From: Myxococcaceae bacterium
GTDB lineage: Bacteria > Myxococcota > Myxococcia > Myxococcales > Myxococcaceae
Reading direction: 5' to 3'
Length of the DNA stretch: 12,980 bases
Assembly (NCBI GenBank): GCA_019694595.1
Contig: JAIBBQ010000187.1
Span: forward strand, 1-12,980
The notes below the pieces were generated by a model. The model was not told the DNA's origin and ran no database searches. It worked only from the letters and a program-made list of their open reading frames with translations. Of the stretch, positions 1,124 to 12,719 are shown piece after piece (position 1 is the first letter of the stretch; each line of letters opens with the position of its first letter). The translations under genes and the position numbers were made by a program.

Positions 1124-3016
1124 ATGCGCACCCAGAGCCTCGCCACCTTCCTGCTGCTCGCCGCTGCCTGCGGCCCCGTCGACGACCACGAGTCGGCCTA
1201 CGTCGACCACGACATCGGCTCCTTCGAGCAAGGCCTCAACGTGGGCGCCGCCGGCGGCTGCGACACCTCCATCGTGCGCGGGCTGACCGCGCAGCTGTAC
1301 GCGGAGATGAACTGCATCGCGCCCAACACGATGGTGAACTTCACCGGGCCCAACATCAGCATCACCTCGCCCGTGGAGCCGTACCTCGCCCCGCCGGCGA
1401 GCGCGGCGATGAAGCGGGCGGTGGCCGCGTCGGGCACCAACATCACCATCAACAGCGCCTGGCGCTCGGTCGCCCAGCAGTACCTGCTCTACAAGTGGTG
1501 GAAGGCGGGGCAGTGCGGCATCCAGATCGCCGCCGCCCCCGGCAAGAGCAACCACCAGTCGGGGCGTGCGCTCGACGTGCCGTCGTACTCGTTCTGGATC
1601 CCGAAGCTCCAGGCCCAGGGCTGGCGCTGGCTGGGCAGCTCGGACCGGGTGCACTTCGACTACAACGGCGCGGCGGACCAGTCGGCGCGCTCGGTGCTCG
1701 CGTTCCAGCGCCTGTGGAACAAGAACAACTCCAGCAAGCTCGCCGAGGACGGCTCCTGGGGGCCCAACACCGAGAGCGCGATGTCGCGCTCGCCGGCGAC
1801 CGGGTTCGGCACCTCGGGGTGCGCGCCCAAGCCGCCGCCTCCGCCGACCGTCACCACCGGCACCTTCAAGGGCAAGGTCTTCAAGCTCAACGCGGCCGCG
1901 CCCACCGACGTCTCGGTGGCGGTGAGCGGCGCCACGGTGAAGGTCGGCGGCAAGGTGCTCACCACCGACGCCGCTGGGGCCTTCACGGTGGTGCTCCCGG
2001 CGGCGACCTACACGCTGAGCGCGGAGGCCACCGGGTACACCGCGGCCTCGGTGAGCAAGGCGCTCACCGCCGGCCAGACGGTGACGGTGAACGTGGGCCT
2101 CGCGCCGGTGGGCGTGGCGGACACCATGAAGCCGGAGATCGACCTCCTGACGCCGGAGTCGGGCGCCAAGCTCGACGTGGCGAAGGTCACGGTGACCGGC
2201 ACCGCGAGCGACGACCGCAGCGGGGTGAAGACGTTCACGATGGCGCAGAACGGCGGCGTGGCGAAGGCGGTGGCGCTGCAGACCGGCGGCGACTTCTCGG
2301 TCGACGTGGTCCTCGCGCCGGGCGCCAACACGCTCGTCTTCTCCGCCACCGACGGCGCGGGCAACGTGGGCACCCTCTCGGTGCCGCTCACCTTCCGAGC
2401 GGGCCTCGAAGGCCTGGTGACGTCGGGTGACGAAGGCAGCGCGATGCCGCTCGAAGGCGTGCAGGTCGAGCTGCAGGACGGCGCCGGCATGGTGCTCCTG
2501 TCCACCACCACCGGGCCCGATGGCACCTACGCGATCGAGCTCACCGACGTGCCCGCGGAGCGGGTGCTGGTGGCGCGCCTCGGCGGCTACGCCGACTACC
2601 GCTCGCCGGTGAGCCTGTCGGCCGACGCGCGGACCCAGTGGAGCTTCACCATGGACCGCTCGATGGGCACCGGGCTGCGCATCCTCTCGCCCGAGGAAGG
2701 CGACGTGGTGGACACCGCGAGCGTCTCGGTCGCCGGCGTGGTCGACGGCTTCGCGCCGACGAGCGTGCTGGTGAACGGGACCGAGGCGACGCTCTACCCG
2801 GGCGGCCGCTTCGGCGTCTCCGTGGGGCTCTTGTACGGCACCAACGCGGTGGTGGCGGTGGCGCGCGGCGCGAACGGCGAGACCGCGGAGCAGGTGGTGC
2901 ACGTGCGGCGCGAGAGCGGGACCATGGCGGCGGGCGGCGGCTGCTCGGCGGCGCCGGGGACCTTGGTGCTCCTCGCCGCGGCCGCGCTGCTGCGGCGCCG
3001 CGCGCGTCATTCGTAG
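1124..3016 (+). CDS. Lipoprotein peptidase M15 (VanY / D-Ala-D-Ala carboxypeptidase-like, LAS zinc peptidase fold) with tandem carboxypeptidase-regulatory-like / Ig-like beta domains and a MYXO-CTERM-like C-terminal sorting tail.
   Basis: The start MRTQSLATFLLLAAACG (lipobox LAAAC) at 1124 is preferred over the upstream in-frame start at 998; AAAGG lies upstream. The zinc-ligand pattern is SNHQSGRALD (H-x6-D) followed by DRVHFDY. A PKPPPPP linker follows, then repeated roughly 90-aa beta modules (GTFKGKVFKL..., LEGVQVELQDGAGMVLLSTTTGPDGTYAIEL...). The tail is GGGCSAAPGTLVLLAAAALLRRRARHS. Confidence 0.8.
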   Translation: MRTQSLATFLLLAAACGPVDDHESAYVDHDIGSFEQGLNVGAAGGCDTSIVRGLTAQLYAEMNCIAPNTMVNFTGPNISITSPVEPYLAPPASAAMKRAVAASGTNITINSAWRSVAQQYLLYKWWKAGQCGIQIAAAPGKSNHQSGRALDVPSYSFWIPKLQAQGWRWLGSSDRVHFDYNGAADQSARSVLAFQRLWNKNNSSKLAEDGSWGPNTESAMSRSPATGFGTSGCAPKPPPPPTVTTGTFKGKVFKLNAAAPTDVSVAVSGATVKVGGKVLTTDAAGAFTVVLPAATYTLSAEATGYTAASVSKALTAGQTVTVNVGLAPVGVADTMKPEIDLLTPESGAKLDVAKVTVTGTASDDRSGVKTFTMAQNGGVAKAVALQTGGDFSVDVVLAPGANTLVFSATDGAGNVGTLSVPLTFRAGLEGLVTSGDEGSAMPLEGVQVELQDGAGMVLLSTTTGPDGTYAIELTDVPAERVLVARLGGYADYRSPVSLSADARTQWSFTMDRSMGTGLRILSPEEGDVVDTASVSVAGVVDGFAPTSVLVNGTEATLYPGGRFGVSVGLLYGTNAVVAVARGANGETAEQVVHVRRESGTMAAGGGCSAAPGTLVLLAAAALLRRRARHS

Positions 3017-4197
3017 AGCGAGCCCACCGCGCCTTGCCAGGCGTGGGTCACGCCCCCGCTCTTCGAGCTGAGGATGAACGGGACCTGGAAGGTCGCCGGG
3101 AGCGCCGCAGCTGCGCTCACCGTGAGCGTCAGGTCCTGCCCGTCGTTGGTGGTGGTGCTCGAGAGCGAGAGCTGGACCCGCGCATCCAGGCTGAGCGCCT
3201 GCAGCGTCCAGTCGGGGACGGCGCCGAGGCTGCGGCTGCGGAGCGGGATCGTCGTCGCCTCTCCGGGGCGCAGCACGATCAGCGTTCGTCCCGAGACCGG
3301 CACCGTCGTGAAGTCGACGCCGTCGGAGTCGAGTCTACAGGGGTCGAGGCCACGCGCCGCGCGACGGTCCGAGTACACCCGTTCCACCTCATGGGGCCCC
3401 GCGGTGGTGGTGCCTGAATAGAGGCAGACGTCGGCGAGCTCGGCGCCGTGGGTCGCGGCCCAGCCCGAGTCGTCGACCACGAAGCCATCCATGAAGGGGT
3501 CGGTCGCCGCCTCGACGAGCTCGTGCGACGCGAGGAAGGTCTGCGTGCGGAGCGTGCTGGAGTCGGAGCAGCGGAGCATGACGGAGTAGGGGACCCGCAC
3601 CGGCGCGCCCGCCCGCGACTGGAGCGTGAGGAAGTAATGGTACGCGTGGTATCCGCTGCACGAGGGCGCTCCGAAGGGCTGCGTGAAGGTCGCGCCCGCG
3701 GGAATGAAGAGCAGGTAGTTGCTCTGCGCGTCCGGTTCGCGCACCGCGGGGTTGGCGAGATCGGCGGCGATCAGCGCCCTGACGTCGTCCTCCGAGTAGC
3801 TGGTGGCCGGAGGCAGGGTGACGGTGCCGTCGAAGGCTCCAGGACCGATGCAGCCGTTGGGGCCGCAGTACTCGGCGGTGACCTGGGCCCACCAGGCGCT
3901 GGTGACGATGTCCCGCGAGAAGGTCTCGAGCGCGCCCGCGAGCGGATCTCCCGCGGCGATGGCCACTCTCAGGTGGACCTGCGTCTGCACCAGGCCGCCG
4001 TGGCTGCGCACGCGGGGGTAGCGGGGGAAGAGCGCCGTTCCCGCGTCGGTGCCGGCGTCCATTCCGGCGTCGGGCGTGGGACCCGTGTCGGGCACCATCG
4101 CCAGACCGGCGTCGGGGCAGTCCATCGACGAGACCGGCGGCGTCGAACCGCCACATGCAGCCAGCACGGCCGCAACTGCCAGCAGGACAGGTTTCAT
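3007..4197 (-). CDS. Secreted lipoprotein of unknown function (397 aa), with an Asp/Ala/Gly/Pro-rich linker after the lipobox.
   Basis: The start MKPVLLAVAAVLAACGG is the complement of 4195-4197; GGGAG lies 6 nt upstream. The listed 666-aa ORF 3007..5007 carries a spurious Arg/Gly-rich N-terminal extension that overlaps the real gene 4392..4997 in another frame. The C-terminal part is beta-rich. A HELVE stretch (not HExxH) is the only peptidase-like hint. GC3 is noticeably lower than in flanking genes. Confidence 0.7.
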   Translation of the reverse strand: MKPVLLAVAAVLAACGGSTPPVSSMDCPDAGLAMVPDTGPTPDAGMDAGTDAGTALFPRYPRVRSHGGLVQTQVHLRVAIAAGDPLAGALETFSRDIVTSAWWAQVTAEYCGPNGCIGPGAFDGTVTLPPATSYSEDDVRALIAADLANPAVREPDAQSNYLLFIPAGATFTQPFGAPSCSGYHAYHYFLTLQSRAGAPVRVPYSVMLRCSDSSTLRTQTFLASHELVEAATDPFMDGFVVDDSGWAATHGAELADVCLYSGTTTAGPHEVERVYSDRRAARGLDPCRLDSDGVDFTTVPVSGRTLIVLRPGEATTIPLRSRSLGAVPDWTLQALSLDARVQLSLSSTTTNDGQDLTLTVSAAAALPATFQVPFILSSKSGGVTHAWQGAVGSLYE

Positions 4198-4391
4198 TCG
4201 AGGCTCCCGACGCGTCGCACCTTCCGGACCGGCCTTCTCTTCCGGAGACAGGACGCTCTTGGTCTCGGAACTTCCAAGAAGGCAGTCTGTCCGGATGAGG
4301 ACGCCCGTGACGGCGGTAGAGCTCAGGTGGGGAAACACCGGCTGGTCGGCCTGACGCTCGGCCCCTCGCCTCGCCGGCGGGCTCGGCAGGC

Positions 4392-4997
4392 CTACCGCCG
4401 CGTCGCCGGCCTTCGTCGTGTCTTGCTGGCGGCGATCGCGGCGGCCATCGCCAGCTGATGGTCCTTCTGCCAGGGCGCGCCGGCCTCCGCGCGGGCCGCG
4501 GCGAGGTGCTGCTTCAGCGTGCCACCGAGCACCCGGTCGGCCTCGTCGAGCGCCTGCTTGGGCTCGTACCAGTGCACCGCCCAGCCGCGCGCCGTCGCCG
4601 CGGCGGCGAGGGCCCGGCGGTACATCACCCAGTCGGCCACGCACATCGCCCGGTAGTTCTGGATCCGCGCCTCCACCGTCCCGGGGAGCGGCGGGCACAC
4701 GCGCAGCGCGATGCCCGTCGGCTCGACGCCGAGCTCCGCCGCAAGGGTCGAGAGTGCGGCCTCGGAGCACCGCTGCGCCGAGCGCTCGACCTGGCGGACC
4801 AGGGCCACGGCCTTCGCCAGCTCGAGCCTTTGGCCCTCGTGGTGGTGGGGCATGACCGGAAGGCCCGCTTCCGTGAGAGCGACGCGCCGTCGGTCGAGCA
4901 GGGCGCCGGGAGGGCGCACCGTGATCAGCACCGCCCAGCCCGCATGGTCCATCACGCCCACCAGCGCCCGGCCCGCGCGCGGACGCCGGTTGCTCAC
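4392..4997 (-). CDS. Hypothetical protein (201 aa), translationally coupled to the upstream sigma-54 activator gene.
   Basis: Third-position G/C is strongly enriched in this frame (checked across 4441-4500). The start is GTG, complement of 4995-4997, overlapping the TGA stop of the upstream gene (GTGA overlap). An alternative ATG lies at residue 16. I recognise no domain. Confidence 0.55.
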   Translation of the reverse strand: MSNRRPRAGRALVGVMDHAGWAVLITVRPPGALLDRRRVALTEAGLPVMPHHHEGQRLELAKAVALVRQVERSAQRCSEAALSTLAAELGVEPTGIALRVCPPLPGTVEARIQNYRAMCVADWVMYRRALAAAATARGWAVHWYEPKQALDEADRVLGGTLKQHLAAARAEAGAPWQKDHQLAMAAAIAASKTRRRPATRR

Positions 4998-6346
4998 CGC
5001 GCGTCACCGCGCGTCTTGAGCCCCAGCCGCGCCATCATGGTGCGCACGGTGCCACCCGGGTCGCGCGCCTTGCCGCGCCCCACCTCGCCGAGCAGCCGCG
5101 CTGCCTCCGCTGCGTTGCCGCCCGCGCGCCGCAGCGCCTCTTCCAGCGCCGCGCGCTCGAGCGCCTCGCGCTCCTGCTTCAGGTTCATCGTGCCCGCGGC
5201 CACGCGCCGGGCGACCTCGGCCACGTCCACCACCGCGCCGACCACCTGGGGCGCCTCGCGGCGGATGAGGCGCCGCGGGAGGTCCGACGGCAGGAGCTCC
5301 TCCCCGGCGGTCTTCTGCACCAGCGCCGAGGCGATGACGTTGCGCAGCTCGCGGATGTTGCCCGGCCAGCGCCACTGCACGAGCAGCTCCATCGCCTCGT
5401 CGGTGACGGTGCGCACCTGGCCGCGCGAGGCGGTGGTCTCCTGCGCGTAGAACTGGGTGATGAAGTGCTCGACGAGGTGGGGAATGTCCTCGCGGCGCGC
5501 GCGCAGCGGCGGCAGCTCGAGCGAGAGCACCGAGAGCCGCTCGAAGAGGTCGGCCCCGAAGGTGCCTTGCTCGATGAGCACCCGCAGGTCGCGGTTGGTC
5601 GCCGCCACCAGCCGGAAGTCGACCTGGTGCCAGACGCTCTCGCCCAGGCGGGAGACCACCCGGTCTTCCAGCACGCGCAACAGCTTCACCTGCAGCGAGT
5701 GGGGCGTGTCGTCGATCTCGTCGAGGAAGACGGTGCCGCCTTCCGCCGCGAGGATGAGGCCGTCGTAGTCCTTCACCGCGCCCGAGAAGGCGCCCTTGGT
5801 GTACCCGAAGAGCTCGCCTTCCATCAGCTCGTTGGGAATGGCGGCGCAGTTGATGGGCACGAAGGTCTTGCGAGACCGCGGGCTCCACTGGTGCAGGAGG
5901 CGCGCGGCGACCTCCTTGCCGGTGCCCGTCTCGCCGGTGATGAGCACCGGCATCGACGTCTTCGCCGCGCGGCTCACCTGCGCCAGCAGCGCCCGCGTCA
6001 CCGGGCTCTTCGCCACCACGCCCGCGGGAATCGTCGGCGCCGACACCTCGAAGAGCAGCTCGCGCAGCCGCCGCACCAGCCGGTCGCGGCCCGCCGGTGA
6101 GGCGAGCGTGCAGGCGTCGTGGGCACCGCGCTCCACCGCCTGCAGCACCTGGCCGCCGCCGAGCTCCACGTCGCAGACCCACACCCAGGGCTCGAGGCCG
6201 CGCGGCGCCGGCGGCACCTCGGCCTTCGCGGTGCGCACCACCCGGATGCGCGCCGGGCTCTTGCCGCGCTCCAGCCCCAGCGCGCCGATCGCTGCCGCCA
6301 GCGGGCCCTGCGGCGGCGTTCCCTTCCAGTCGAGGCCTTCGCTCAT
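4994..6346 (-). CDS. Sigma-54-dependent transcriptional activator (bacterial enhancer-binding protein, NtrC/Fis family) with an atypical N-terminal domain.
   Basis: It has the AAA+ sigma-54 interaction domain: Walker A GETGTGKE, the GAFSGA variant of GAFTGA, Walker B VFLDEIDD, and the GNIRELRNV arginine finger. A C-terminal Fis-type HTH follows (AAEAARLLGEVGRGKARDPGGTVRTMMARLGL). The roughly 130-aa N-terminal region lacks the receiver DD...D...K signature. The alternative 455-aa ORF 5004..6371 in another frame has Arg/Gly/Ala artefact composition. Confidence 0.9.
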   Translation of the reverse strand: MSEGLDWKGTPPQGPLAAAIGALGLERGKSPARIRVVRTAKAEVPPAPRGLEPWVWVCDVELGGGQVLQAVERGAHDACTLASPAGRDRLVRRLRELLFEVSAPTIPAGVVAKSPVTRALLAQVSRAAKTSMPVLITGETGTGKEVAARLLHQWSPRSRKTFVPINCAAIPNELMEGELFGYTKGAFSGAVKDYDGLILAAEGGTVFLDEIDDTPHSLQVKLLRVLEDRVVSRLGESVWHQVDFRLVAATNRDLRVLIEQGTFGADLFERLSVLSLELPPLRARREDIPHLVEHFITQFYAQETTASRGQVRTVTDEAMELLVQWRWPGNIRELRNVIASALVQKTAGEELLPSDLPRRLIRREAPQVVGAVVDVAEVARRVAAGTMNLKQEREALERAALEEALRRAGGNAAEAARLLGEVGRGKARDPGGTVRTMMARLGLKTRGDAR

Positions 6347-6418: not shown

Positions 6419-6435
6419 GTGGCACCTGAGCCGCG
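6419..6435 (+). promoter_or_regulatory. Candidate sigma-54 (-24/-12) promoter for the divergent giant ORF.
   Basis: TGGCAC-ctgag-ccGCg has the GG and GC dinucleotides at the canonical 10-bp spacing and a perfect -24 hexamer. It sits between the EBP gene and the 6453 ORF. The predicted TSS is near 6446, leaving only about a 7-nt leader before the ATG at 6453. The -12 region matches only the GC core. Confidence 0.35.
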
Positions 6436-6452: not shown

Positions 6453-9400
6453 ATGCGGATCGGGGGGATCCTGGCGACGTTGGTGTGCCTCCATGCGCCG
6501 GCGGCCCTGGCCGACGGGTTGATCGGCGTGCCCCCGTACCCACCGAGGAACGTCTCGCGGCCCGACGGTTCCTACGCCGAGTTCATCCAGGTCGGCGCCG
6601 GTGGGGAGCCTTCGGCGACGATCACCACCGCGGGCACGACGATCTCGGTCGACGCGCTCCTCTTCTACGTCGAGGAGGTGCAGAGCTCGGGCAACGTCAC
6701 CCTGACGGTGAGCACCGGCGCAGCGTCCGTGTCCTCGGTGCTGTCGGTCGGGCAACCGGGGTGGACGGAATGGCGCTTCGTCCCGCCGGTACCTGTGGGC
6801 AACTCGACCCTCACGCTCACGCCAGACCCGGGAGTCGCGGTCACGTTCCGGCACCTGCGGCACGAGTACGAGGCAGACCATCAGCTGGGGGGCGAGGCCG
6901 CGCCGCTGCTGTTCCCCACGGGCCTGCGTGACGGTGGGCCCCCGTACGACGTGTCGTTCGTCTTCCGCCGCAGCGGTGGTCGAGATCCGTATGCGTTGCC
7001 TGGTTGCAGCGCCGCCGATTCCGATCCGGTGGGGGGCTTCCCGTACGTCCGCGTGTTCAAGGTGCCCATCGACCCGGCTTCCGGGTTGAGCCAGTCGCTG
7101 GTCTTCCCGCCCGGGTTCCGGAGTTTCGGTGGCGGCTCGTGCGTGCAGACCGGCTTGGCGTACGCCTCGCCGGAAGCGAGTCTGAGCGTTTCGTACTCGG
7201 CCATCGATGGTGGACCCGGGCCGTGGGTGCCGCTTCTCGAGAGCGGGCTTGCGTCTCGTGCGCCGGTGGTGGCTGACGACGATGGTGGTGTCAGCGCACC
7301 GTTCACACTGTCGATCCGGAGCGACGGTGGCCTGGCCGCGTGGGCGATGTTCGACACCGGCCCGGAGCTGCTCGACCCGTGCCACCCCGCCGCGCGCGCG
7401 ACCTTCGGAGGTGCCCGCGCCAGAGCGGTGGGCTTCGGGGCCGGCGCGGATCTGGCGACGCGCTTCTCCGCCTCCGCTGCGCTGCCACGCTGGCCCGACG
7501 ATGACGGCGATGGGTACGGCGCTCGCGGGGCCCAGCGCTGGGTGTGCTCCTTCGTCGCTCGGTCTGCCGTGGGCCTCGTCGTCAACGGCGAGGACTGCGA
7601 CGACCGCTCCTTCGACACGAAGCCCGGGGCGGGCGAGCTCTGCAATGGGCGCGACGACGACTGTGATGGCCTGGTCGATGCCGACGACACGCTCGAGGCC
7701 ACGCCCGCCTGCGAGCTGTCTCGGGGCGTCTGCGCGGGGGCACGGCACGACTCCGTTCGTTGCCGCGGTGGCCGGTGGGACGCCTGCGGGAGCGAGTACG
7801 GCCCGCGGTACGAGGCGCAGGAGGTGTCCTGCGACGGGCTGGACAACGACTGCGACGGCCGGACCGACGACGTCGGTGCAGGGCCGCCCTGCTTCTTCCA
7901 GCTCGGCGTCTGCGCGGGTGCGCGTGCTCGCGTCTGCACGTCGGAGCGTTGGCTCGCTTGCACCGACGCCGACTACGGGCCCGACTTTCAGGCGGTCGAG
8001 ACGCAGTGTGACGGACTGGACAACGACTGTGACGGCAGAACGGATGGGGCAGACTTCGACCTGCCTTCGACGCTGTGTGAGAAGCAGCTCGGCGTCTGTG
8101 CCCGCGCCGTTCACGCTGCCACGGACTGCACCGCCGCAGGGTGGGCCGAATGCCCGGCGTCGCGCTACCCCGCCGACTACGAGCCGATCGAGGGCCGCTG
8201 TGACGGGCTCGACAACGACTGCGACGGCGTCGTCGACGAGGGCTGCCGGGCCGCGCCACCGCCTGCCCGGTGCGGCTGCGGAACGACCCTGGGCGTGTGG
8301 CCAGCACTGGGGCTCCTCGTCTGGTGGGGCCGCCGCCGGCGTGCGCACGCGCTGACGCTCGTCGCCGTCGTGCTCGCGCTTCCAGCTCGCGCGGAAAGCG
8401 TTCAGACCGTGATCGTGCAGGGCCCCACCGCGGTGGAGGTGACGGCGCCCTCAGCGGTGTCGACCGCGCACGACGGCCGCTCGTTCCTGGTGGTGTTCAA
8501 CGCCGACCGCGCTTTGATCGCACGGCTCACCGAAGCTGGCGGACAGTCAGGTCGCGCGGAAGACCTCGGGCCGCCGTTCGCCCGCGGTGCCGGGTGCAAG
8601 CCGGCGGGGCGCTGCGTGGTCAACCTCCGGGGGACGCTCTCGGTCCTTCGGGACGCCGGAGACGGCGGCTGGGGACTGGGACCTTCCACCGGCCTGGTGA
8701 AAGCCTTCGATGCCGACCCCGGTGGCTGGGTCGTGCTGGCCGAGGAGAGTTCGGGAACGGTTCGGAAGGTCGACGAGGCCATGGCGCTGCAGTGGCAGCG
8801 AACCGTCTCTCCGTTCGCCGACCGGGTGTACTTCATCGCCGACGACGAAGGCTTCGTCGCGCTGGGATACCTGCGGGGATTCACCACGACGTCGTACATC
8901 ACGGTGATCGCCCCGGACGGCGGACAGGAAGGGCTGGCCGAGATCCTGGTTCCGCCAGGGGCCATCGTGGCGGGGCAGGCCAACTCGGGCAGCTGGACCG
9001 CGGCGTCGGTCGCCCCGCGCGAGGTGGTGCTCATGTCCCGCAACTCACTGTGGACGCCCGCGGGAACGCCCATTCCCTTTCCCGTCTCCATGTCCCAGCG
9101 AACCACGGGCGGCGTCGCGTTCTTCGGCCGGCAGGGAGACCAGATGATGTCGCTCGCCGTCGACCGCGCGGGCCTCGCGCTCGCGCTCTCGACCCTCGGC
9201 GACGGTGGCGCTTGCAGTGACGAGGCTGCCTTCGCGGCGGGCGCGGACGCCGGCGTGGCCTGCTGGTCGAAGACGGGCCAGTGCTGGAATGGCCCCTGCT
9301 GCAAGGTCGGCTGCGCGTCGACCGATGCCGTCGCCCGGCCGACGGGGCCCTGGGTGCCGTTGGTCGCTGACGCGGTCACTCATCTGACGCCTTCGGTGCA

Positions 9401-10748
9401 GCTCGCGGCACGCGATGGCGGCGTCGTGCAGTGTGAGCTCTCGCTCGAGCGCGGCGGAGTGCACGCGGTGTGGGACCTCGGTGCGCTCGATGGCGGAAGT
9501 CCGGCGCTGTTCCCACCAGGGACGACGGTCGACCTCGTGCCCTGGGGGCGGGTCCTCCGGAGCGCCTCGGCGCTCACGACCCTCTCGACGAGCGGTCAGC
9601 CCGGCCCGTCGGTGGCCATTCCCCCGGGAGCCTCGCTCGCGCTCGCGGAGGACGGCTACCTGCGGATCCGCCTCGATGGGGGAACGCTCGAGTTCGTCCA
9701 GATCGCGGCGTCGCCCACCGGCTTCACGGAGACCCGGCCGGTGGTGCTGCGACGCGCTGCGCCCGTCGGCGGCCTCCGGCTCACCAGCTCCGGACGCGGC
9801 GTGCTGGTCGTCTGGGACGAGCAGGACCAGCGCTTCGGCGCCGTGGTCCAGCGCGGCCTGCCGCTCCCCGCCGTGTCGTCATTCGGGCCCGCGGTTCCGG
9901 TCCTGGGCCTGGGAACGAGCGCAGACGATTCGGTCTGGCAGGTGCTCCAGCGCGTCGACGGAGGGGTCGCGCTGGTCACCTGGACCGAGACCGACGCCGG
10001 GCTCGTCGCTGCGGGCAGCGTCGAGTTGCCGGTCCACGATTGTCTCGAGCCCACGCTCATCGGCGGCACGCCGCCGGTCCTCCAGTGCGTGACCGGTGCG
10101 GAAGCCCGGCTGGCGCTGTCCTGGGTCGACCCCGACGGCGGCTTGCGGGCGATCAGAGGACTCGACGGGGCCTCGTCGGTGCGCGAGGTCGGCGCCGCAC
10201 GCTCGGGCGAAGGGCTGATGCTCGCAGTCGCCCGGCGCGCCCTCGACGGCGGCAGTCAACTCGACCTGGTCCGGGTCGACTCGCTCGCGCTGGGGTCGCC
10301 GTGCGCGTCGGGCGAGGCGTGCCGGTCCGGCTGGTGCGTGGACGGGGTGTGCTGTGACGACCCTTGCGGCGGCGGCCTCGACGGGGACTGTCTTGCGTGC
10401 TCGGCGACGCGTGGGGCGCCAGCCGATGGTCGTTGTGCCCCGGTGCTCGCAGGGACCGTCTGCCGGCTTTCTCAGGGGCCCTGCGACCTGCCGGACGTGT
10501 GCGACGGGCTGCACGCGAGCTGCCTGCCCCGCACCATGAGCGACGGCACGGTGTGCGAAGTCAGCGGGCGGCAAGCCACCCGGGTGTGCAGTGCTGGAAA
10601 GTGCCTGCCGCTGGCGCCTGCAGAGCCTCCGGTCCTCGTCGCTCCTGCCCCGGCACCGGCGTGTGGCTGCGGAGCGCTCGAGGGGGCGTGGTGGCCGCTC
10701 GCGCTGCTGCTGGTGCTTGCGAAGCGAATCATGGCCAAACGCGAATGA
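6453..10748 (+). CDS. Giant cell-surface protein (1431 aa) that looks like two MYXO-CTERM proteins fused in frame.
   Basis: The N-terminal signal peptide is MRIGGILATLVCLHAPAALA|DG. A roughly 370-aa unknown domain follows, then four Cys-rich repeats with the core CDGLDNDCDG, then ARCGCGTTLGVWPALGLLVWWGRRRR (MYXO-CTERM-like). The frame then continues with AHALTLVAVVLALPARA|ESV (signal-peptide-like), a roughly 640-aa beta-rich region, a 16-Cys module, and a terminal ACGCGALEGAWWPLALLLVLAKRIMAKRE. There is a single open frame with consistent GC3 throughout. Confidence 0.75.
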   Translation: MRIGGILATLVCLHAPAALADGLIGVPPYPPRNVSRPDGSYAEFIQVGAGGEPSATITTAGTTISVDALLFYVEEVQSSGNVTLTVSTGAASVSSVLSVGQPGWTEWRFVPPVPVGNSTLTLTPDPGVAVTFRHLRHEYEADHQLGGEAAPLLFPTGLRDGGPPYDVSFVFRRSGGRDPYALPGCSAADSDPVGGFPYVRVFKVPIDPASGLSQSLVFPPGFRSFGGGSCVQTGLAYASPEASLSVSYSAIDGGPGPWVPLLESGLASRAPVVADDDGGVSAPFTLSIRSDGGLAAWAMFDTGPELLDPCHPAARATFGGARARAVGFGAGADLATRFSASAALPRWPDDDGDGYGARGAQRWVCSFVARSAVGLVVNGEDCDDRSFDTKPGAGELCNGRDDDCDGLVDADDTLEATPACELSRGVCAGARHDSVRCRGGRWDACGSEYGPRYEAQEVSCDGLDNDCDGRTDDVGAGPPCFFQLGVCAGARARVCTSERWLACTDADYGPDFQAVETQCDGLDNDCDGRTDGADFDLPSTLCEKQLGVCARAVHAATDCTAAGWAECPASRYPADYEPIEGRCDGLDNDCDGVVDEGCRAAPPPARCGCGTTLGVWPALGLLVWWGRRRRAHALTLVAVVLALPARAESVQTVIVQGPTAVEVTAPSAVSTAHDGRSFLVVFNADRALIARLTEAGGQSGRAEDLGPPFARGAGCKPAGRCVVNLRGTLSVLRDAGDGGWGLGPSTGLVKAFDADPGGWVVLAEESSGTVRKVDEAMALQWQRTVSPFADRVYFIADDEGFVALGYLRGFTTTSYITVIAPDGGQEGLAEILVPPGAIVAGQANSGSWTAASVAPREVVLMSRNSLWTPAGTPIPFPVSMSQRTTGGVAFFGRQGDQMMSLAVDRAGLALALSTLGDGGACSDEAAFAAGADAGVACWSKTGQCWNGPCCKVGCASTDAVARPTGPWVPLVADAVTHLTPSVQLAARDGGVVQCELSLERGGVHAVWDLGALDGGSPALFPPGTTVDLVPWGRVLRSASALTTLSTSGQPGPSVAIPPGASLALAEDGYLRIRLDGGTLEFVQIAASPTGFTETRPVVLRRAAPVGGLRLTSSGRGVLVVWDEQDQRFGAVVQRGLPLPAVSSFGPAVPVLGLGTSADDSVWQVLQRVDGGVALVTWTETDAGLVAAGSVELPVHDCLEPTLIGGTPPVLQCVTGAEARLALSWVDPDGGLRAIRGLDGASSVREVGAARSGEGLMLAVARRALDGGSQLDLVRVDSLALGSPCASGEACRSGWCVDGVCCDDPCGGGLDGDCLACSATRGAPADGRCAPVLAGTVCRLSQGPCDLPDVCDGLHASCLPRTMSDGTVCEVSGRQATRVCSAGKCLPLAPAEPPVLVAPAPAPACGCGALEGAWWPLALLLVLAKRIMAKRE
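7597..8247 (+). repeat. Four tandem protein-level cysteine-rich repeats (about 55-60 aa each) of the Myxococcales CDGLDNDCDG putative metal-binding type.
   Basis: The units end in LCNGRDDDCDGLVDADD, SCDGLDNDCDGRTDD, QCDGLDNDCDGRTDG and RCDGLDNDCDGVVDEGC. Each is preceded by C-x5-6-GVCAGA-x-C-x6-W-x2-C-x4-Y-x6-E. The DNA units have diverged; the repeat is visible in the translation. Confidence 0.75.
8262..8400 (+). other. Internal MYXO-CTERM-like sorting motif immediately followed by a signal-peptide-like segment (junction of the two halves of the giant ORF).
   Basis: The translation reads CRAAPPPARCGCG-TTLGVWPALGLLVWWG-RRRR-AHALTLVAVVLALPARA-ESVQ, i.e. Cys motif, hydrophobic helix, basic cluster, a second hydrophobic helix and an AxA-type cleavage site. 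There is no in-frame stop. The only in-frame alternative start nearby is GTG at about 8295. Confidence 0.6.
10297..10745 (+). other. C-terminal 16-Cys module plus terminal MYXO-CTERM sorting signal of the giant ORF.
   Basis: SPCASGEACRSGWCVDGVCCDDPCGGGLDGDCLACS...GKCLPLAP has 16 Cys in about 110 aa. The C-x-SG-x-C-VDGVCC pattern resembles Dickkopf-N-like / disintegrin-like bacterial Cys-rich modules. PAPAPACGCGALEGAWWPLALLLVLAKRIMAKRE follows. Confidence 0.5.
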
Positions 10749-10841
10749 AATGACGTCGCGGTGTCGTGGTCCCAGTCGTCCTCCACGGCCACCTCCGGCA
10801 CCCCGGGTGCACTCCCACCGGCATCTCGAAGGGAGGCCCGT

Positions 10842-12719
10842 ATGTTCGACATCTCGACGTGGGTGGTGCTGGGAGCGGTGGTCCTCAAGCTCGGGTTCAT
10901 CGTGGTGCTGCTGGGCTTGTGGGTGATTCGCGAGAACGAGGCCGGGGTGGTGGTGAAGAAGTTCGGCCCGGGGCTTCCCGCGGGGCGCCTCATCGCGCTC
11001 AACGGCGAGGCCGGCTACCAGGCGGAGCTGCTTCCGCCCGGCTGGCACTTCGGCCTGTGGCGCTGGAAGTACAAGGTGCTGCGGGTGCCGCTGGTGACGG
11101 TGCCACCGGAGGAGATCGCGCTGGTGGTGGCGAAGGACGGCGCCGCGATTCCCGCGGAGCGCATCCTCGGACAGGAGGTGTCGTGCGATGACTTCCAGAG
11201 CGCGCGGGCGTTCCTCACCAACGGCGGCGAGAAGGGGCGGCAGCTCGCCTTCCTCACCGCCGGCACCTACCGGGTGAACCCGGCGCTCTTCGACGTCATC
11301 ACCACCAAGAACGCGAGCCACTACGGCCTGTCGCCGTCGCAGCTCGAGGTCTTCCGGGTGCAGCCCGACCGCGTGGGCATCGTGACCACGCTCGACGGCG
11401 CGCCGATCGCGGCTGGCGATCTCGCGGGCCCCGAGGTCCAGGGGCACGAGCACTTCCAGCGTGGCCAGGCGTTCATCGACGCGGGCGGCTGCCGCGGCCT
11501 GCAGGAGCAAGTGCTCCTGTCCGGCGCGTGGAACCTGAACCCGTGGCTGGTGCAGGTCGACCAGATCCCGATGACCGAGATTCCCATCGGCTACGTGGGC
11601 GTGGTGGTGAGCTACGTGGGCAAGGAGCACGTCGACCTGTCCGGTGACGACTTCACCCACGGCGACCTGGTGGAGAAGGGCCGCAAGGGCGTGTGGATCG
11701 AGCCCCTGCTGCCCGGCAAGCACCCCATCAACACCCGGGTGATGAAGGTCGAGCTCGTGCCCACCACCAACATCGTCCTCAACTGGGCGACCCGGACCGA
11801 GGCGCACAAGTACGACGAGAAGCTCTGCCCGATCACCGTCCGCTCCAAGGACGGCTTCAGCTTCACGCTCGATGTGTCGCAGATCATCCACATCGGCATG
11901 AAGTCGGCCCCGCGGGTCATCTCGCGGGTGGGCTCGATGCAGAACCTGGTGGACCACGTGCTGCAGCCGACGGTGGCCAACTACTTCCGCAACTCGGCCC
12001 AGGAAGTCTCGGTGCTCGAGTTCCTCTCGGCGCGCAGCCAGCGCCAGCAGGAGGCGTACGCCAACATCAAGAGCGCGACCGAGGCGTACGACGTGGAGTG
12101 CATCGACACCCTCATCGGCGACATCGTGCCGCCGGCCGAGCTGATGAAGACGCAGACCGACCGGAAGATCGCCGACGAGCTCAAGCGCACCTTCGAGGTG
12201 CAGCGGGAGGCCCAGATGAAGCGCCAGGAGCTGGAACGCGAGACGTCGATCGCCAACATGCAGGCCGAGGTGGTGCGCTCCGAGCAGACGGTGCGCATCA
12301 GCGAGCGCAACGCCCAGTCGGTCGCCGAGACCGCCAAGGGTGAAGCGGCCCGCCGCCGGGTGAACGCCGAGGCCGACGCGCTGAGCCTCAAGCTCGGCGC
12401 CGAAGCCGAGGCCCAGGCGGTGCGCCTCAAGGGCATCGCCGAGGCCGACGCGGTGCGCGCGGTGGGCGCCGCGAAGGCCGAGGCGTACCGCTCGGGTGTC
12501 GAGGCGCTGGGCACCGGGGCGTACACCACGGTGCAGCTCGCCGGCATCCTCGGTGAGCACCACGTCAAGCTGGTGCCCGACGTGGCGGTGGGTGGAGAAG
12601 GTGGGGCAGGGGCGCTGGCGACCGCGCTGATGGGGCGGATGCTGAGCGGCGCTGCCACGCCCGCGAAGGCGACGGCCGCGGTGGCCCCGCCTCCGCTGCC
12701 CACCAACGGCAAGGCCTGA
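10842..12719 (+). CDS. Flotillin-like SPFH/band-7 family membrane protein (FloT/YqiK-type).
   Basis: The ATG at 10842 is preceded by GGGAGG at 10831-10836 with a 5-nt spacer. The listed GTG start at 10761 adds a non-hydrophilic leader and is less likely. There is an N-terminal TM hairpin (MFDISTWVVLGAVVLKLGFIVVLLGLWVI), an SPFH core, and a C-terminal coiled coil rich in Ala/Glu (SLKLGAEAEAQAVRLKGIAEADAVRAVGAAKAEAYRSGVEALG) typical of the flotillin tail. GC3 is very high. Confidence 0.8.
   Translation: MFDISTWVVLGAVVLKLGFIVVLLGLWVIRENEAGVVVKKFGPGLPAGRLIALNGEAGYQAELLPPGWHFGLWRWKYKVLRVPLVTVPPEEIALVVAKDGAAIPAERILGQEVSCDDFQSARAFLTNGGEKGRQLAFLTAGTYRVNPALFDVITTKNASHYGLSPSQLEVFRVQPDRVGIVTTLDGAPIAAGDLAGPEVQGHEHFQRGQAFIDAGGCRGLQEQVLLSGAWNLNPWLVQVDQIPMTEIPIGYVGVVVSYVGKEHVDLSGDDFTHGDLVEKGRKGVWIEPLLPGKHPINTRVMKVELVPTTNIVLNWATRTEAHKYDEKLCPITVRSKDGFSFTLDVSQIIHIGMKSAPRVISRVGSMQNLVDHVLQPTVANYFRNSAQEVSVLEFLSARSQRQQEAYANIKSATEAYDVECIDTLIGDIVPPAELMKTQTDRKIADELKRTFEVQREAQMKRQELERETSIANMQAEVVRSEQTVRISERNAQSVAETAKGEAARRRVNAEADALSLKLGAEAEAQAVRLKGIAEADAVRAVGAAKAEAYRSGVEALGTGAYTTVQLAGILGEHHVKLVPDVAVGGEGGAGALATALMGRMLSGAATPAKATAAVAPPPLPTNGKA

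Follow-up and report, generated by a model that had tools for sequence, protein, structure and literature searches.

The stretch of DNA analysed here, the 12,980-nucleotide (nt) contig JAIBBQ010000187.1 (referred to below as the window), carries at 6453..10748 on the forward strand one open reading frame (ORF) in which two cargo regions are each followed by a sorting tag resembling MYXO-CTERM, the first tag lying in the middle of the protein and the second at its C terminus. This ORF is one genuine gene that has been retained in evolution, as established by its single coding frame, its anatomy and its conservation in a distant homologue. We lean slightly towards the interpretation that the single precursor gives rise to two C-terminally lipid-anchored surface proteins, by means of an internal signal peptide and the two tags.

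A single reading frame crosses the junction between the two halves

6453..10748, forward strand: whole precursor ORF (translation; G+C content at the third codon position, GC3; same protein in a JGI scaffold)

Translation of the ORF gave 1431 codons, the first of them ATG, and then a stop codon, with no internal stop. The encoded elements are, in order, a putative signal peptide, an N-terminal domain (N-domain), four MopE repeats, a CGCG/hydrophobic/RRRR block, the segment AHALTLVAVVLALPARA-ESV, a second cargo (cargo 2), a Cys-rich module and the tail ACGCGALEGAWWPLALLLVLAKRIMAKRE, which ends at the stop codon. Translation, hydropathy and Pfam analysis bore out to the residue the earlier description of the first half, the junction and the second tail. 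The first tag is followed by 801 residues, and 784 residues remain after AHALTLVAVVLALPARA, which ends at residue 647. The Kyte-Doolittle profile showed peaks only at the N terminus and at residues 363-378 (within the Cys-rich region), 609-623, 630-650 and 1404-1428.

In the frame of the ORF, GC3 amounted to 0.77-0.94 and exceeded the G+C content at the other two codon positions in every 300-nt interval; across the junction, in 120-nt intervals, it was 0.80-0.93. The GC3 frame is thus single and continuous, indicating that no frameshift is hidden at the junction and that the two halves share one frame. An identical protein has been recorded from a different assembly, JGI scaffold L001 (sample 3300006092), whose nucleotide sequence is identical to that of the window over the whole ORF and differs elsewhere by two single-nucleotide polymorphisms and a 99-N gap.

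A search with the full-length protein retrieved mostly MopE-repeat proteins. One match, P0010 (931 residues, Logan run ERR14790956), showed 36% identity over 54% of the query and spanned the junction, where it reads ...KPGCGCTTVDGPLFALLALVALAARRRRAPLVLSLVALSAAAEPRIAIE... On the corresponding contig, L002, the regions matching query residues 2-781 and 1032-1408 are both in frame 2, and the stretch between them is in frame 0, as confirmed by GC3. Once stitched, the homologue comprises 1425 residues and is collinear with the window protein from the signal peptide to a second tag, AACGCGAGASVPTLLALIALLGLRRERRAAAIAK, which forms its C terminus and is followed by the stop codon. The original prediction had raised the question of whether an orthologous locus carries a stop codon at the junction; L002 has none, and the frame there is supported by GC3 (0.88-0.91). 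Identity between the two proteins was 37% in the N-domain, 50% in the MopE repeats, 41% in the first tag, 41% in the segment after RRRR, 26-27% in cargo 2 and 42% in the Cys-rich module, the junction thus being better conserved than cargo 2. The two genes are found in different gene neighbourhoods. Since the double-tagged layout is common to two proteins of about one-third identity in different neighbourhoods, a local artefact is excluded.

These data bear directly on the three explanations that had been offered for the ORF. It is barely credible that two adjacent MYXO-CTERM genes were merged by loss of a stop codon, whether through a sequencing or assembly error or through a very recent mutation. 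The contig is indeed metagenome-assembled, and the presence of a TGA at 8353-8355 and a GTG at 8341 in the +1 frame means that indels could in principle yield a nearby stop and start; against this stand the single GC3 frame, the identical second assembly and the distant homologue, about 36% identical, that reads through the junction. Frame analysis of single indels around 8330-8355 yielded none that produces a terminated first gene together with a second gene provided with a start and a signal peptide. In addition, only RRRR and one Ala separate the first hydrophobic segment from the next hydrophobic core, a gap too small to accommodate a stop codon, a new start and another basic n-region.

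The second explanation, in which cargo 2 is made by internal initiation at the in-frame GTG 8295 or GTG 8370, besides or instead of the full-length product, is very unlikely. Both GTG codons are present, but this triplet is frequent in DNA of 72% G+C, and neither a promoter-like site nor, in the 20 nt upstream, a Shine-Dalgarno-like purine run was detected. A product started at 8295 would begin with the membrane helix of the first tag, and one started at 8370 would carry a pre-sequence of 8 residues, not enough for export. With the frame open upstream, neither start is required. Of the three explanations, a genuine polyprotein is therefore the best supported, its processing steps being predicted ones.

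An origin by tandem duplication was also considered and rejected: the best local alignment between the halves (E=0.009 over 58 residues) does not make them paralogues, and the two tags are not connected by any long DNA repeat.

Two MYXO-CTERM-like tags are present in one polypeptide

8271..8342, forward strand: internal MYXO-CTERM-like tag (CGCG at 8271-8282, residues 607-610; membrane helix TM1 at 8283-8330; RRRR at 8331-8342, residues 627-630)
10662..10748, forward strand: terminal MYXO-CTERM-like tag CGCGALEGAWWPLALLLVLAKRIMAKRE and stop codon (CGCG at residues 1404-1407 with Cys 1404 and Cys 1406; hydropathy)

Both tags were compared with the features listed by Haft for the MYXO-CTERM family. 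A Cys signature opens each domain, at residues 607-610 and 1404-1407, and is followed by a hydrophobic helix, visible as uncharged runs at residues 611-626 and about 1411-1423. These helices contain Trp and Pro and are moderately hydrophobic (peaks of 1.5-1.7); TM1 consists of the 16 residues TTLGVWPALGLLVWWG (residues 611-626). The basic cluster of two to five residues, mostly Arg, is present as RRRR in the first tag. The second tag lies at the C terminus of the protein, where such tags are expected, whereas the first is internal.

In all four tags of the two proteins, Cys-Gly-Cys directly precedes the hydrophobic segment, the motifs of the homologue being GCGC and CGCG. The curated NCBIfam models for the tag, TIGR03901 and TIGR03382, have cut-offs of 20 bits and 15.85 bits, respectively. 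The internal tag of L002 passes both, with 26.3 bits for TIGR03901 and 23.6 bits for TIGR03382, and its terminal tag passes TIGR03382 (16.9 bits vs 15.85). The window as a whole holds three tag-like ends in 13 kb, two in the ORF and one on the gene at 1124-3016, and the contig carries the label Myxococcaceae.

The segment after RRRR resembles a cleavable signal peptide

8343..8393, forward strand: internal signal-peptide-like segment AHALTLVAVVLALPARA, residues 631-647 (hydropathy, pattern in the homologue)

The segment that follows RRRR forms the strongest hydrophobic peak of the protein (2.09). It can be divided into RRRR, AHALTLVAVVLAL and PARA-E, with Pro at position -4 and Ala at positions -3 and -1, and a rule-based prediction places a signal peptidase I site, ARA-E, between nt 8393 and 8394. 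In the homologue, the corresponding parts are RRRR, APLVLSLVAL and SAAA-E, within the sequence RRRR-APLVLSLVALSAAA-EP. The uncharged run after RRRR comprises 15 residues in the window protein and 14 in L002. In both proteins a helix-breaking residue, Pro or Ser, precedes the site, Ala occupies positions -3 and -1, and Glu follows; this pattern resembles the N-terminal sites of the same proteins, ALA-D and AHA-D.

Residues 627-647 were judged as a signal peptide by rule and not by a trained predictor. The region has a basic n-region, a hydrophobic core (h-region) within the range of 7-15 residues, small residues at -3 and -1 and no Pro at +1; it departs from a classical Sec signal peptide in its position, 630 residues from the start of the protein. 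According to one study (PMC2120157), shorter hydrophobic cores set cleaved signal peptides apart from signal anchors. In both proteins, the segment after RRRR looks like a cleavable Sec signal peptide in its anatomy more than like a membrane anchor.

The two cargos

6453..6512, forward strand: putative N-terminal Sec-type signal peptide MRIGGILATLVCLHAPAALA-DG, residues 1-20 (hydropathy; n-, h- and c-region pattern by inspection)
6513..7487, forward strand: N-domain of cargo 1, residues 21-345, beta-rich (37% identity to the homologue)
7488..8246, forward strand: Cys-rich region with four MopE-type repeats (PF11617), residues 346-598 (Pfam; DNA repeat families D1 and D2)
8394..10301, forward strand: cargo 2, residues 648-1283 (about 636 residues), beta-rich (26-27% identity to the stitched L002 homologue)
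10302..10604, forward strand: Cys-rich module of cargo 2, residues 1284-1384, motif CVDGVCCD.PCG (42% identity to the homologue)

At the N terminus, the AxA-D site (ALA-D) is kept in the homologue as AHA-DG. The N-domain of cargo 1 gave no match in Pfam, NCBIfam or PDB sequence searches, and its AlphaFold2 model, mostly beta, had a mean predicted local distance difference test (pLDDT) score of 42.2, too low for a fold search. The MopE-type repeats that follow are well supported: PF11617 reached 76.6 bits, where the Pfam gathering threshold is 27, in four stretches within residues 381-600. Cargo 2 is likewise without a Pfam match or a significant PDB sequence match, and its AlphaFold2 model (mean pLDDT 35.9, mostly beta) was too low for a fold search. 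When cargo 2 was compared exhaustively by phmmer with 1.84 billion representative proteins, its only match was itself. Its Cys-rich module matched Disintegrin weakly (E=0.02), below the cut-off.

Proposed processing of the precursor and the three-helix alternative

On the basis of this anatomy, the following pathway is proposed. The N-terminal signal peptide would start Sec translocation of cargo 1, that is, of the N-domain and the MopE repeats, until TM1 of the first tag stops the transfer and leaves RRRR in the cytoplasm, as expected from the positive-inside rule. RRRR would double as the n-region for the segment that follows, whose h-region is LTLVAVVLAL and whose c-region is PARA; this segment would insert with its N terminus in and its C terminus out, thereby closing a tight hairpin and restarting translocation for cargo 2. 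Signal peptidase I would cut after ARA (residue 647) and cargo 2 would be anchored by the terminal tag. The CGCG Cys of each tag would be lipidated and the membrane helix removed by myxosortase (MrtX). The expected products are two lipid-anchored proteins in a 1:1 ratio and a residual hairpin peptide of about 38 residues, and the type II secretion system would carry both proteins to the surface.

The last steps follow the published working model for TraA, in which Cys lipidation is combined with removal of the helix by myxosortase (PMC11980579). In that study, MrtX cleaved TraA bearing a C-terminal FLAG extension, and the authors, citing sortase and archaeosortase work, state that sorting tags function in the middle of proteins (PMC11980579). 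Taken together, these two points make a cut at an internal tag plausible.

The complete scheme is that of an envelope polyprotein with a tag directly abutting a signal peptide, a single Arg cluster serving both; one Sec event would deliver two unrelated cargos, which would be split by signal peptidase I and myxosortase and both be lipid-anchored at the surface 1:1, presumably as a two-component complex. For the scheme in this full form, we find acceptance and doubt evenly balanced.

Several observations weigh against it. The topology, the two types of cut, the lipidation and the delivery to the surface are all inferred. The first tag of the window protein remained below the cut-offs of the curated models, with 15.4-15.5 bits for TIGR03901 and 13.3-14.6 bits for TIGR03382, and the second tag matched neither of the two models; its basic cluster, KRIMAKRE (KR..KR), is weaker and mixes Lys with Arg. 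The original claim that both tails are MYXO-CTERM tags is thus upheld as far as motif, helix and basic cluster are concerned, and is not upheld by the NCBIfam cut-offs, which neither tail reaches. As a calibration, the ordinary terminal tag of the neighbouring gene at 1124-3016 (GGGCSAAPGTLVLLAAAALLRRRARHS, followed by the stop codon) scored 15.9 bits with TIGR03901, about the same as the first tag, and is similarly below the cut-off; this comparison, like the passing scores of the homologue, speaks in favour of the precursor. Only one homologue was found. In addition, the assembled L002 sequence shifts frame within cargo 2 at about 12491 and shifts back at about 12930, so that about 440 nt are in frame 0, and the gene caller split the homologue into products of 931 and 441 residues. 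These frameshifts reflect either an assembly error or a recent decay of cargo 2. Finally, neither half was found as a separate gene by word-index searches, by phmmer with cargo 2 or by pattern scans of genome and metagenome contigs.

The same data must be examined in the light of a second model, in which the protein is an inner-membrane protein with three helices, unprocessed or only partly processed. The CGCG/TM/RRRR/TM block would then form a hairpin connecting one periplasmic domain to the other, and the last helix would serve as an ordinary anchor. ARA-E would stay uncut, and myxosortase would cut nothing, or only the first tag; in the latter case the hairpin would keep cargo 2 in the inner membrane. 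The hydropathy peaks and the charges suit such an out-in-out-in topology equally well. The lack of any homologue of either half alone, which the original prediction had counted in advance as a point against two joined proteins, fits this model too, as do the low scores of the window tags and the absence of a hidden Markov model match for the second one. Against it, Cys-Gly-Cys is kept in all four tags of two proteins of about 36% identity and would be needless in a plain anchor, and the tags of the homologue pass curated MYXO-CTERM models. Moreover, the second arm of the hairpin consists of 14-15 uncharged residues followed by a conserved AxA-E, a length that is low for a stable membrane helix and a pattern usual in signal peptides that are cleaved. 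On this evidence, we regard the three-helix protein as unlikely and continue with the processed precursor as the working interpretation.

The arrangement is rare

The double-tagged arrangement is rare and the family has two known members. When the 120 best MopE-protein matches were scanned with a regular expression for internal tags, only the query and P0010 were recovered, together with one false positive located inside a repeat. The back-translated pattern of CHPAARATFGG matched the window, L001 and L002. Scans of genome and metagenome contigs with peptide patterns and with this back-translation detected no relatives, in collections that lack even the source contigs. Word-index searches, run either with cargo 2 by itself or with the alignment of the N-domain, gave no match, not even the entry of the query itself, and are therefore uninformative on absence.

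A separate search for each half as an independent gene had been proposed, and no such gene turned up. Because neither half was found free-standing, a fusion origin is unproven; the earlier expression "two proteins joined" holds as a description of the architecture and not as an account of its evolutionary history.

Surrounding DNA and neighbouring genes

6419..6433, forward strand: possible sigma-54 -24/-12 element TGGCAC-N5-CCGC (weak, read by eye, 20 nt upstream of the ATG)
1124-3016, forward strand: gene with VanY peptidase, CarboxypepD_reg, Big_7 and Glucodextran_B domains, lipoprotein-type start MRTQSLATFLLLAAAC and terminal tag GGGCSAAPGTLVLLAAAALLRRRARHS at 2912-3013
3007-5007, reverse strand: ORF of 666 residues
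4994-6346, reverse strand: divergent sigma-54 activator gene (Sigma54_activat, 205.7 bits)
10839-12719, forward strand: gene for an SPFH/Band 7 (flotillin-like) membrane protein
about 12831 to the end of the window, forward strand: lipoprotein-like start MRALVLGLSMLAMACGG, then a Gly/Ser-rich linker, running off the window

Neither within the ORF nor in its surroundings was a sigma-70-like promoter or an intrinsic terminator detected. The possible -24/-12 element keeps the GG and GC dinucleotides and was missed by a consensus scan allowing up to 2 mismatches. It lies in the 106-nt gap that separates the ORF from the divergent sigma-54 activator gene. In L001, the 99-N gap (943-1041) replaces 68 bases of the window (6020-6087) inside this activator gene, which is split in the JGI calls because of the gap; the two polymorphisms between L001 and the window are at 5966 and 6152.

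Downstream, the flotillin-like gene begins less than 100 nt past the stop codon of the ORF and may be co-transcribed with it; no such gene stands beside the L002 homologue. The product of the gene at 1124-3016, with a lipoprotein-type start and a terminal tag, could carry lipid at both ends and thus be lipid-anchored at both. The ORF at 3007-5007 matched nothing in Pfam or NCBIfam and had a GC3 of 0.78, against 0.94-0.96 for its neighbours; it may be a real orphan gene or may be partly mis-delimited.

Comparison with known systems and implications

Internal MYXO-CTERM motifs in ORFs are rare but have been reported by the Wall laboratory (mBio 2025, PMC11980579), with MXAN_5598 of Myxococcus xanthus as an example, which the authors suggest arose when two genes fused and whose N-terminal part they suggest is processed and surface-anchored. 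In MXAN_5598, as in the window ORF, the tag stands in the middle of the ORF; it follows an adhesin-like N-terminal part. According to its description, MXAN_5598 continues downstream with an outer-membrane beta-barrel and an OmpA domain and has no second tag, whereas the window ORF encodes a soluble-looking downstream cargo with its own tag and a conserved signal-peptide-like junction that shares the Arg cluster. What is new relative to MXAN_5598 is the terminal tag on the downstream cargo, the conserved re-entry segment sharing the Arg cluster and the conservation in a distant homologue. The view that the architecture had not been described must consequently be narrowed: an internal MYXO-CTERM was already known, and what was not found described, in Haft's MYXO-CTERM preprints or in PMC11980579, is the combination of two tags with an Arg cluster in common and an internal signal peptide.

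The first half resembles TraA of M. xanthus in its general build only, with a signal peptide, a variable N-domain, Cys-rich repeats and a MYXO-CTERM tag. TraA also has a partner, TraB, encoded immediately downstream; there, however, two overlapping ORFs are used, TraB is of the OmpA type without a tag, and the repeats of the window protein are of the MopE type.

One bacterial gene giving two membrane or periplasmic proteins is known from FbcH of Bradyrhizobium japonicum, a cytochrome b/c1 precursor that, reportedly in work by Thony-Meyer and colleagues in 1991, is split at an internal signal peptide; the products are subunits of the respiratory chain and involve neither sorting tags nor transport to the surface. 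A tripartite sorting tag that is not C-terminal is reportedly processed in an ArtA substrate of Haloferax volcanii (Abdul Halim et al. 2017, J Bacteriol 199:e00802-16, as cited in PMC11980579), and that system differs by its archaeosortase, its PGF-type tag, its archaeal host and its Tat export. In the bunyavirus Gn/Gc precursor, a stop-transfer helix is followed by an internal signal peptide and signal peptidase frees the second ectodomain (PMC5113920); this system uses eukaryotic endoplasmic reticulum machinery and no lipid-anchoring tag, and the analogy is one of mechanism only.

With an internal and a terminal tag in one polypeptide and a conserved, putative internal signal peptide between them, the gene is a natural construct bearing on the distance from the C terminus at which a tag is permitted. 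Should the precursor stay uncut, it amounts to no more than a membrane protein with an unusual set of three helices. Processing along the proposed lines would show that myxosortase acts on internal tags, and the tag, RRRR and the signal peptide would together form a compact stop-transfer/restart module for co-export at fixed stoichiometry. Gene callers and annotators could then be missing two-product genes in Myxococcota.

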